Positions 15,190-41,849 are shown, counted from the stretch's first letter. The stretch is 51,676 nucleotides of DNA from Ionaspis alba (GCA_964255285.1 CAXUUL010000034.1:1-51676); one strand, 5' to 3'. Notes: generated by a model not told the origin, from the letters alone. Translations and numbers: made by a program.

Positions 15190-15289
15190 NNNNNNNNNNN
15201 NNNNNNNNNNNNNNNNNNNNNNNNNNNNNNNNNNNNNNNNNNNNNNNNNNNNNNNNNNNNNNNNNNNNNNNNNNNNNNNNNNNNNNNNN
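15190..15289. other. Assembly gap (100 N) flanked by identical 17-bp direct repeats
   Basis: AGGCATCGCCTTAGGCA at 15173-15189 and again at 15290-15306. Confidence 0.95.
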
Positions 15290-39450: not shown

Positions 39451-39801
39451 GTTATGTGGAGATTACAAGTAACCTCAGTCGGTGAGTAAGCCAGGCTATG
39501 ACAAAGTGAAGGTGACGTTCAGTAAGCAGGTAATAACAAAGAGGCAACTGTGTTGTTCTGATTCATATGCGCAACATTATGCATTTGGACATTGGCGGGG
39601 CATTTCAGTGCCCAAGGCCGTTGGAAGGGAAACCGCGCTAGATCTCTAAGCTCGCTCTTCAACTTTCTACACTCTTGATCATTTCCACACCTAATTCCAC
39701 CCAGCAGCAAATCGCCTTACAGCCCCGCTGGCAAGACCGAAACTCTGCCGGGAAAAAGGTTTTCGAAACAATCGCCGACCGGTCCACTCTCCAGAACCAA
39801 G

Positions 39802-40565
39802 ATGTCCGCATCACCGGCACCTTCAGAGAACGATCAACAAACCAAAGGCCAGGAGCAGATCACATTCAGATTCTGTCGAGAATGGTGTGTCACCCCTGCA
39901 TTATGTGCTTGTTGTTCTGTGGGCGTAACTGACTTTCTATGTTAAGTTCAAACATGCTGTATCCCAAGGAGGATCGTCTCAACAACACGCTTATGTTCGC
40001 TTGCAGAACCTGCCAATTCAGCGAGCCCGCCGCGTCCTCGTGCGTCTTTCGCAACAATCTCTACAATACCGTCGGAGAAACGGCAGGTGTGACTCAGGAT
40101 GTGGCAGCTGATCCTACGGTTCGTCTACCTGACTTTTACACATGCACTCTCTGCGGACAGGAGATTATTTGTACTATCTGCGTAGAAGAATACTGCTCGG
40201 GGTTTGTGGCCAAGGCCAAGAATGTCAACGAAGAAGCTCGCGCGAACCATATGGAGACACAGCATGGTGAAGTCGTGGAGGTGGAAAGAGGATGTAACGC
40301 AATTGCTGTCAATGGTGAAATTAAATATTCTTGAACCTTTGCTAATGTGGTCCACACTCCACAGCTGCCGCGATCGAACAAGCAGTGTCCAAAGTGCAAG
40401 GAGATGGAAGCTGTATTTTTCCAATCGCAGCAGCGGTCCGCCGAAACTGGGATGGTAAGTCTCGCAGGGTTTCCTCCATCGTATATCTATCACACATGCG
40501 ACTGACGAGACTGCCCTTAGAAACTCTTCTATGTGTGCTGCAGCTGCGGCACTATCTTCCAATAG
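39802..40565 (+). CDS. RPB9: RNA polymerase II subunit Rpb9
   Basis: Exons 39802-39884, 39947-40118, 40365-40454, 40521-40565 give FRFCRECSNMLYPKED...FACRTC...DPTLPRSNKQCPKC...AVFFQSQQRSAETGMKLFYVCCSC. Confidence 0.95.
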
Positions 40566-40753
40566 GGTCTGGGCGTCGTCTATGCGCGCTGCGGTTGTGT
40601 TGTTCAGTTGTGGTCTCGATCCGCAGATGATACCCCAGGGAAAGGAGTTGTTGGAATTGTTTATGATGCCAGACTCGTGCAGTGTGCTTTTTTATATATA
40701 TGTTCCATCGTCCCTTTTCTTGGGACACCGACATGTGCCAAAGAATCTCTCGT

Positions 40754-41384
40754 TCAGACATGCATAGGTGCTAGTGACAGAATCTTTGACCACTGCTTCT
40801 CACGTAATTCCGAGCCGACAACACCTACAGGCTCATTAGAAAGCTATGGAAATACACCACAGAGCTCTGGGAAAGTTGTGCGAAAGGATGTATGCTGTCC
40901 ACTCGTTAAAGACTCGTTGGAGGGAATACCCACTAGTCAACCTCGTGCCAATGGGCTCTCCCGTCTTGTTGATCAGCACGCAAGCGTTGTCATCGAAACG
41001 TACCACCATGCCATCCTTCCTCTGCAGCTTTTTGGCAGTACGGACCACTACAGCGTGTCGTATATCGCCTCTCCGGACTTTGTTGGCTGCGGCCGCAGAT
41101 ATTGAGCTCCCTCCAGGCCCAGATCCTTCCCCGAAAGACCGTTGCTTCTGGACGACAACGATTATGCGATCGCCTGACACGTGTGATGAGTAGATGAAGT
41201 ATTTTGAGGAAAGACTGATGTGGAGAGACCGCTTACCGATTTTGGCATGTCTCTTCATCCGTAGATTGGCGACGCATTCGACAATGGAGGCGCCTGAATT
41301 GTCGATGCAATTGAGCATCGTCTAGATCGGCCTGAGCAACAGCAGACTAGAGATGAGTCACTGAAATACCTTGAGTTGAATCAT
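40754..41384 (-). CDS. MRPL38: Mitochondrial ribosomal protein uL14m
   Basis: Four exons give MIQLKTMLNCIDNSGA...GDRIIVVVQK...VRRGDIRHAVVVRT...RFDDNACVLINKTGEPIGTRL...KILSLAP. Confidence 0.92.
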
Positions 41385-41849
41385 TGCGGCAGCATCCGGG
41401 GAGCACTGAATAGGAAAGCTTCTTAGAGCAGTCTTGATAGATCTTCGGAATGGTTTGATGCGAGGTACCGCAAGGAGATGGCACTAGGATCCAGGCCTGC
41501 ATATCTGCCGCTTCGCGGCCCAGCCGTGCCAGCCTCTCAGACTCCTAACTTATACTAGGCCTCTCTGCTCCCCACTCACCATGTAGACCGCCCTACTCTA
41601 CTTCACGAGCGCATTCCGCGTCGCTCGGTATTCCATTCCTTACCGTGTATTGTCCCGCCTTGATTTCACCACACGATACTGTCTTTACCTTCTTGACTTC
41701 TTTGGCGCTTTGCCTTTTCGCAGCCTCCTCAGCTTATGCATCACCACCAAGGCGCAGCTCTAATGGGATTTCTAAAGCTCTAATTCTGGCTACGTGATAT
41801 CAAACGCCTTTGTCCTTCGTTCTCCTAAAAATCTCTACTCACATCAGAC

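Follow-up and report, generated by a model that had tools for sequence, protein, structure and literature searches.

Intron 2 of RPB9 in filamentous ascomycetes holds a conserved in-frame cysteine-knuckle module, pointing to a possible second Rpb9 isoform

Rpb9 is a core subunit of RNA polymerase II (Pol II) with roles in transcriptional fidelity, start-site choice, transcription-coupled repair, and Rpb1 degradation, and its two zinc ribbons have separable roles. Here, we describe the RPB9 gene in a stretch of 51,676 nt from Ionaspis alba (GCA_964255285.1 CAXUUL010000034.1:1-51676; the whole stretch is referred to as the window), in which intron 2 contains, in the reading frame of exon 2, a small cysteine-rich module that is also present in orthologous introns of other filamentous ascomycetes. 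The gene occupies positions 39802–40565 on the + strand, and its four exons, which are separated by GT..AG introns, encode a canonical Rpb9 of 129 aa. Exon 1 (39802–39884) contains the start codon and the first CxxC of the N-terminal ribbon (Zn1), and its ...FRFCREC junction is common to relatives. It is followed by intron 1 (39885–39946; 62 nt, GTGTGT..AAG) and by exon 2 (39947–40118), which encodes the remainder of Zn1 and the linker, has D-P-T as its last codons, and is 95–96% identical to its counterparts in lichen-fungus relatives. Intron 2 (40119–40364; 246 nt, GTTCGT...CAG), which doubles as a putative coding extension, precedes exon 3 (40365–40454), where the TFIIS-type ribbon (Zn2) begins with LPRSNKQCPKC.... 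After intron 3 (40455–40520; 66 nt, GTAAGT..TAG), exon 4 (40521–40565) supplies the second Zn2 knuckle and the stop codon TAG, and spliced relatives end alike. In Pfam, the N-terminal ribbon model PF02150 matched exon 2 (E value 4.5e-08; 33.3 bits against a cut-off of 25.2), and the TFIIS-type ribbon model PF01096 matched exon 3 (E value 1.3e-09), which is reached by splicing.

Read onward from exon 2, intron 2 begins with an in-frame Val codon right after D-P-T, has no stop ahead of the cysteine motif, and stays open for 71 codons (40119–40331) up to a TGA at 40332–40334 (+ strand), 30 nt 5' of the 3' splice site. The fungal branch-site consensus is CTRAY, and a CTAAT at 40342–40346 (+ strand), read from the sequence, is the likely branch site of the intron. 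A retained-intron product would have 156 aa, consisting of 85 exon codons and 71 intron codons. Intron codons 9–21 (40143–40181, + strand) spell the motif C-T-L-C-G-Q-E-I-I-C-T-I-C, that is, CxxCG-x4-CxxC; a C-S-G-F-V block (40194–40208, + strand) lies 3' of the second knuckle, and the remaining 41 codons (40209–40331, + strand) form a charged tail that is predicted to be disordered. When the translation of exon 2 and the intron was searched against Pfam, only PF02150 was matched and PF01096 was not present, and the same was true of the full read-through relatives P0006, P0351, and P0341. This anatomy bears out the first-pass annotation of the DNA, which had placed the start of intron 2 at the linker between the two zinc ribbons, directly after D-P-T, had called it about four times as long as the other two RPB9 introns (measured here at 62 and 66 nt), and had reported an open frame of 71 codons, a CxxC-x5-CxxC at 40143–40181, an off-consensus GTTCGT donor, and an 'LP' echo of the spliced junction. 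The L-P past the junction proved to be near-invariant in relatives. When the intron interior was shuffled 20,000 times, an open frame of at least 71 codons was reached by 0.9% of the shuffles. Because both antisense frames of intron 2 are likewise almost free of stops, the openness of one sequence is unconvincing without relatives.

Because open reading frames (ORFs) in databases are biased towards long open frames, orthologous loci were sampled blind to the intron. To this end, we fetched metagenome loci using two exon-2 peptide patterns, which matched 224 stretches; of the 126 that could be confirmed, the 80 best were carried forward. All but one of the 80 loci could be anchored at the end of exon 2 (L060, whose exon-2 end was off the anchor pattern, was dropped), and exon 3 was located for 61 distinct introns, that of the window included. 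C..CG is found in the frame of exon 2 in 56 of these 61 complete introns and in none of them in either of the other frames, and the five further loci that end 5' of exon 3 all carry it. The offset of the motif from the donor takes 14 different values (5, 6, 7, 8, 12, 13, 16, 17, 19, 22, 23, 26, 30, and 34 codons), every one of them in frame and stop-free. Frame 0 stays open for a median of 60 codons, as against medians of 30 codons for frame 1 and 14 codons for frame 2, and the ORF together with its stop codon covers a median of 71% of the intron. Five introns lack the motif, namely L059, which is degenerate, and L073, L074/L075, L077, and L078, in which the ORFs comprise 6–19 codons. Of the 56 motif-bearing introns, 48 have GTNGGT as their donor, unlike intron 3, for which GT[AG]AG predominates, so that the V-G codons opening the module coincide with a non-consensus donor. 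Among L073–L078 the donor is GTTCGT, as it is in the window, and one of these introns is just 89 nt long.

The place at which the frame closes bears on another use of the intron, in which a second donor inside intron 2 would be spliced to exon 3 and the module would form an alternative internal exon between the linker and Zn2. Two predicted proteins, P0100 (Letrouitia subvulpina) and P0162 (Rutstroemia sp.), fit such an arrangement in that intron 2 runs in frame directly into exon 3, and retention in these two would insert the module and not replace Zn2. In the 56 motif-bearing introns, however, the frame stops a median of 51 nt 5' of the 3' splice site. Moreover, intron lengths show no preference for multiples of three, all residues modulo 3 being occupied, and the ends of the tails are themselves conserved, as in the C-terminal ...MQKL of 13 proteins found in the Leotiomycete-type search described below. 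Considering both sides, we regard an internal exon as a highly improbable account of the module.

To characterize how the intron codons evolve, changes at each codon position were counted by Fitch parsimony, and ratios of nonsynonymous to synonymous substitution rates (dN/dS) were calculated pairwise by NG86. In 21 distinct Leotiomycete-type loci (VGLPLCLLCG.V..CEGR), intron codons 3–18 underwent 19, 9, and 57 changes at positions 1, 2, and 3, respectively. The corresponding counts for the same loci are 27, 13, and 204 in exon 2 and 11, 2, and 69 in exon 3, and the non-coding rest of the intron, which was compared ungapped so that its rate is inflated, has 153, 172, and 143 changes and no periodicity. 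Across the two-knuckle loci, of which 31 are distinct when the window is counted, the motif region underwent 77, 74, and 142 changes, and the four Cys codons had no change at positions 1 and 2 and 6, 4, 7, and 9 changes at position 3, all 26 of which are synonymous exchanges between TGT and TGC. The motif has a dN/dS of 0.03–0.3. For the tail, dN/dS in lichen-type pairs is 0.06–0.33 (L003/L004, 0.083; L034/L036, 0.062; L036/L039, 0.079; L020/L029, 0.138; L031/L040, 0.326), and it is higher or saturated (0.26–1.1) in the short Leotiomycete tails and in distant pairs. A conserved CxxC...CxxC, a preserved frame, and a dN/dS below 1 had been proposed in the first-pass annotation as features to look for in orthologous introns, and all three are found in the loci sampled here. 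At the level of these comparisons, the results show that the module is under protein-level purifying selection, which is indirect evidence that the intron peptide is translated.

Conservation at the 5' end of an intron could also arise from a non-coding element, for instance a structured RNA or a regulator of splicing. In support of this, the best-conserved part of intron 2 adjoins the donor, and there is an overlap between the splice signal and the two opening codons (V-G). This explanation is largely refuted by the bias of the changes towards third positions, with Cys codons that change only synonymously, by a motif that holds the exon frame at 14 distances from the donor, and by the avoidance of stops far 3' of the motif. 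In addition, Rfam gave no match to the intron at an E value of 1 or less, and the intron RNA folded no better than its shuffles (z = +0.53). Judging from its pattern of substitutions, the conserved intron element is a peptide and not an RNA signal. The possibility of a chance ORF in a long intron, to which the nearly stop-free antisense frames of the window lend some support, is refuted by the orthologs through the in-frame motif in 56 of 61 introns, the codon periodicity, the dN/dS values, the matches to the module profile described below, and the synonymous-only changes in the Cys codons.

The same module is widespread among predicted fungal proteins. A protein search with the exon-2 part found 651 proteins, and the best 120 of the 651 were tallied. 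Among these 120 proteins, 67 are read-through forms with CxxC-x(3-8)-CxxC, 17 have a single C[TS][LFI]CG knuckle, 20 are read-through forms without a strict match (many still with C..CG), 10 are spliced, and 6 are without the anchor. Since intron 2 was read through by the gene callers, most of the listed proteins exceed Rpb9 in length and have PF02150 as their sole match. The closest named organisms among the matches listed are the lichen-forming Lecanoromycetes Xylographa, Lambiella, Circinaria, and Icmadophila. When the intron peptide served as the sole query of a word-indexed search, nothing but the window's own ORF was retrieved, which is an index miss since the exon-2 and profile searches found relatives. 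We then used a Leotiomycete-type locus as a second query and obtained, among the matches listed, 120 proteins of which 102 were new, with Tricladium, Lachnellula, Rhynchosporium, Cadophora, and Hymenoscyphus among the named organisms. The new proteins comprise 58 with CxxCG-x4-C, 10 with two knuckles, 6 with CxxCG only, 23 with no motif (including the powdery mildew Golovinomyces), 3 that are spliced, and 2 that are short.

A profile of the module (A2), built from 36 sequences consisting of the window and sampled loci, was run against 1.84 billion representatives and matched 247 clusters at an E value of 1e-3 or less and 81 clusters at 1e-10 or less. Of 137 newly listed clusters, 132 have the motif (116 with two knuckles, 11 with CxxCG, and 5 with CxxCG-x4-C), 2 have no motif, and 3 have no anchor. 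Cluster look-up identified the module in the Dothideomycetes Trichodelitschia, Microthyrium, Macrophomina, Parastagonospora nodorum, Elasticomyces, and Acrodontium and in Sordariomycetes of the Fusarium solani complex and several Trichoderma species, RefSeq entries included. According to taxonomy look-up, the named read-through proteins come from five leotiomyceta classes, namely Lecanoromycetes, Leotiomycetes, Dothideomycetes, Sordariomycetes, and Coniocybomycetes. Taken as predicted translations, these proteins show that the module is kept in frame in at least five classes of filamentous ascomycetes. The searches also returned XP_013939873.1 (Trichoderma atroviride) and XP_001803968.1 (Parastagonospora nodorum) in the PF02150-only read-through form, in which the canonical C-terminal ribbon is missed. 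Many public RPB9 models, like these two RefSeq entries, hold the read-through form only, and both isoforms need annotation.

Comparison of these sequences yields a consensus in which D-P-T is followed by V-G-(L/I)-P-x-x-C-x-x-C-G-x-E-(I/V)-x-C-x-x-C-G. In an alignment of 34 read-through forms (A1), the intron-coded V and the C69, C72, and G73 that make up the first knuckle do not vary, and the third Cys (C78), four residues past the Gly, is present in at least 90% of the sequences of alignment A4 as well as in the window. The fourth Cys is absent from Leotiomycete forms, and the second knuckle is thus not universal. Four cysteines in two CxxC are an arrangement as in zinc knuckles, and the spacing of five residues is far shorter than in TFIIS-type ribbons. 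The knuckles are followed by C-x-G-F-V/L/I in 14 proteins, which are the window and 13 others including Xylographa and Lambiella, and by G-[CF]-[FW]-L-E-V in many Dothideomycete-type forms (22 proteins). Two further motifs are found in the tails, one DPF.EYDEE-like in 25 proteins, with Fusarium and Trichoderma as named members, and one EMS.MEE-like in 12 lichen-type proteins. From their sequences, these clade-specific tail motifs, the C-terminal ...MQKL included, look like short linear interaction motifs. Given the L-P and CxxC likeness to the downstream exons, we also considered whether the module was born by duplication of exon 3 or 4. In the search of the PDB, HMMER placed the first knuckle on the last CxxC of Rpb9, which we took as generic knuckle likeness.

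Our favored reading, to which we assign a probability of roughly 0.7, is that intron 2 is translated when it is retained, so that a small Cys knuckle with a charged tail takes the place of the TFIIS-type ribbon. Splicing of intron 2 would give canonical Rpb9 with Zn1, the linker, and the TFIIS-type Zn2. If the intron is kept, translation would continue from the linker, past D-P-T, into the intron and would give the 156-aa isoform with Zn1 and the whole linker, in which Zn2 is replaced by V-R-L-P, the CxxCG-x4-CxxC knuckle, the C-x-G-F-V block, and a charged, probably disordered tail. A share of the transcripts may keep intron 2 owing to its off-consensus donor (GTTCGT here and GTNGGT in most relatives), and the knuckle cysteines may bind metal. 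By docking on Pol II via Zn1 and the linker, the isoform could produce a polymerase that is without the functions of Zn2 and has a new acidic interaction tail. Canonical Rpb9/POLR2I, in which PF02150 and the linker are followed by PF01096, comes from the same gene, and the predicted isoform shares with it exons 1 and 2, that is, Zn1 and the linker up to D-P-T. The isoform differs from it in being without PF01096, in place of which it has two CxxC separated by five residues, followed by a short hydrophobic segment and the charged tail.

Several observations weigh against this reading. The 71-aa intron peptide matches no Pfam family at an E value of 10 or less, and a search of the PDB with the A2 profile gave only Rpb9 chains, which were matched via the shared exon residues (E value 0.0035). 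In AlphaFold2 models, the N-terminal ribbon is well predicted, whereas predicted local distance difference test (pLDDT) scores are only 58–75 over the knuckles and below 55 in the tail. With P0006 as the first sequence, the mean pLDDT is 62.7 and blocks of 10 residues over the motif score 58–69; with P0001, which is the exon 2 and intron ORF of the window, as the first sequence, the mean is 66.2, the peak is 75 at residues 71–80, and the tail scores 46–54. The best scores in the ESM Atlas are 0.89, with no common family. As to an identity as a zinc finger, Pfam, AlphaFold2, and the ESM Atlas thus revealed no match to a known family and no confident metal-site fold. The stop codon of a retained mRNA precedes the exon 3–exon 4 junction, which makes this mRNA a possible target of nonsense-mediated decay. 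Database entries for read-through 'proteins' are in many cases ORF calls or ab initio models, which do not attest expression, and the ORF has been lost outright in the L073–L078 lineages and in powdery-mildew proteins.

Further points on the same side come from the window copy itself. Its second intron codon encodes R where the consensus has G, in keeping with the GTTCGT donor, and after the CxxC of knuckle 2 it has Val where the majority has Gly. The 49 residues past its knuckles contain 18% D+E and have a net charge of -4, which makes this tail the 7th least acidic among 93 lichen-type relatives, whose tails have a median D+E of 31% and a median net charge of -10 and are net negative in 94% of cases. 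In a close relative, P0010, whose exon 2 is 96% identical, the first and fourth Cys are replaced. The intron ORF of P0010, on a contig of 2.8 Mb (ENA), is still open for about 70 codons and shares the C-x-G-F block, and on sequence P0010 looks like a decaying copy of the module.

These departures raise the alternative that the module is real and ancient but relaxed or decaying in the lineage of the window, so that intron 2 would effectively be a mere intron there and its ORF a remnant. The donor of the window is the hexamer seen in four of the five motif-less introns, which, together with the lost Gly, the weakly acidic tail, and P0010, is what such decay would look like. Against decay, all four Cys, the L-P, the CxxCG, and the C-S-G-F-V block are intact in the window, its frame is open over a length that few shuffles attain, and P0001 matches the module profile with an E value of 9.5e-15, although this profile includes the window itself. 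The window copy is 67% identical (73/109) to P0012 across exon 2 and the intron-coded part in BLASTP, with about 58% identity over the first 33 intron-coded residues when the alignment is read by eye. We consider relaxation unlikely and keep it under consideration because the window departs from the consensus and P0010 has lost two Cys.

If the retained intron is translated, its product could go further and serve as an alternative Pol II subunit that replaces Rpb9. There would then have been a second Pol II since the leotiomyceta ancestor, devoid of the TFIIS-type Zn2 and equipped with a metal knuckle and an acidic aromatic tail that recruits a partner, and the balance between the two forms would be governed by the weak GTNGGT donor; we put this forward tentatively and at odds clearly short of even. 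The partner recruited by the clade-specific tail motifs might in that case be a factor such as one of repair, initiation, or chromatin. In yeast, Rpb9 1-52, which consists of Zn1 and the linker, is enough for ATG1 transcription and autophagy, Zn2 being dispensable there (PMC9638876), and an Rpb9 without Zn2 is therefore plausible as a functional entity. This engineered protein shares with the predicted isoform an architecture from which Zn2 is missing, but it is artificial and is without the Cys knuckle or the acidic tail.

Parallels exist among known systems. In Saccharomyces cerevisiae, translation of the retained intron of PTC7 leads to two functional proteins (PMC3597508). PTC7 resembles RPB9 as interpreted here in that one gene would encode two proteins, depending on whether an intron with a frame conserved between species is removed or stays in. 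The two differ in that the PTC7 intron is a multiple of three in length, is stop-free, and adds an internal, N-proximal transmembrane helix, whereas RPB9 intron 2 holds its own stop and would replace the C-terminal domain. The PTC7 event is confined to Saccharomycetaceae and its translation has been demonstrated (PMC3597508), whereas the RPB9 module is found in at least five Pezizomycotina classes and the isoform is a prediction from sequence. Alternative splicing of SKI7/HBS1, which is conserved in Ascomycota and Basidiomycota (PMC3597508), is likewise an ancient fungal splicing event with two functionally distinct proteins per gene; it differs in using alternative splice sites and not retention and concerns an unrelated protein family. 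TFS4, an archaeal TFS paralog, is an inhibitor of RNA polymerase (PMC5715097). As a member of the TFS/Rpb9 ribbon superfamily with an altered C-terminal part and a changed effect on the polymerase it offers an analogy only, for TFS4 is encoded by a separate paralogous gene and keeps the ribbon fold, and we imply no inhibitory activity for the Rpb9 isoform. Literature searches on Rpb9 isoforms, intron retention, and splicing in fungi, which covered mostly titles and abstracts, found no paper on an intron-2 Rpb9 isoform. If our reading is correct, Pol II may come in two kinds in thousands of filamentous ascomycetes, among them lichen fungi, plant pathogens, and biocontrol strains, and conserved protein-coding intron retention in fungi would reach past a handful of yeast cases.

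Some additional observations concern DNA runs and the surroundings of the gene. Run X1 consists of a single DNA contig that spans the stretch with 2 differences and may be its source. For the own organisms of runs X2 and X3, only parts of the stretch were matched at 80% likeness or more (part of exon 3 in X2), and intron 2 was not matched. Over 39610–41439, run X2 also yielded contigs of 151–266 nt at a depth of 2–3 that are at most two letters off the window, the diverged organism of that run having a depth of 41.7; these near-identical contigs look like material carried over from one sample to another within a single study. At 15190–15289 of the window, 100 consecutive N mark an assembly gap. 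Convergent with RPB9, an ORF of 161 codons on the - strand (40839–41321) matches Ribosomal_L14 (PF00238) with an E value of 1.3e-29 and is probably a mitochondrial ribosomal protein gene.

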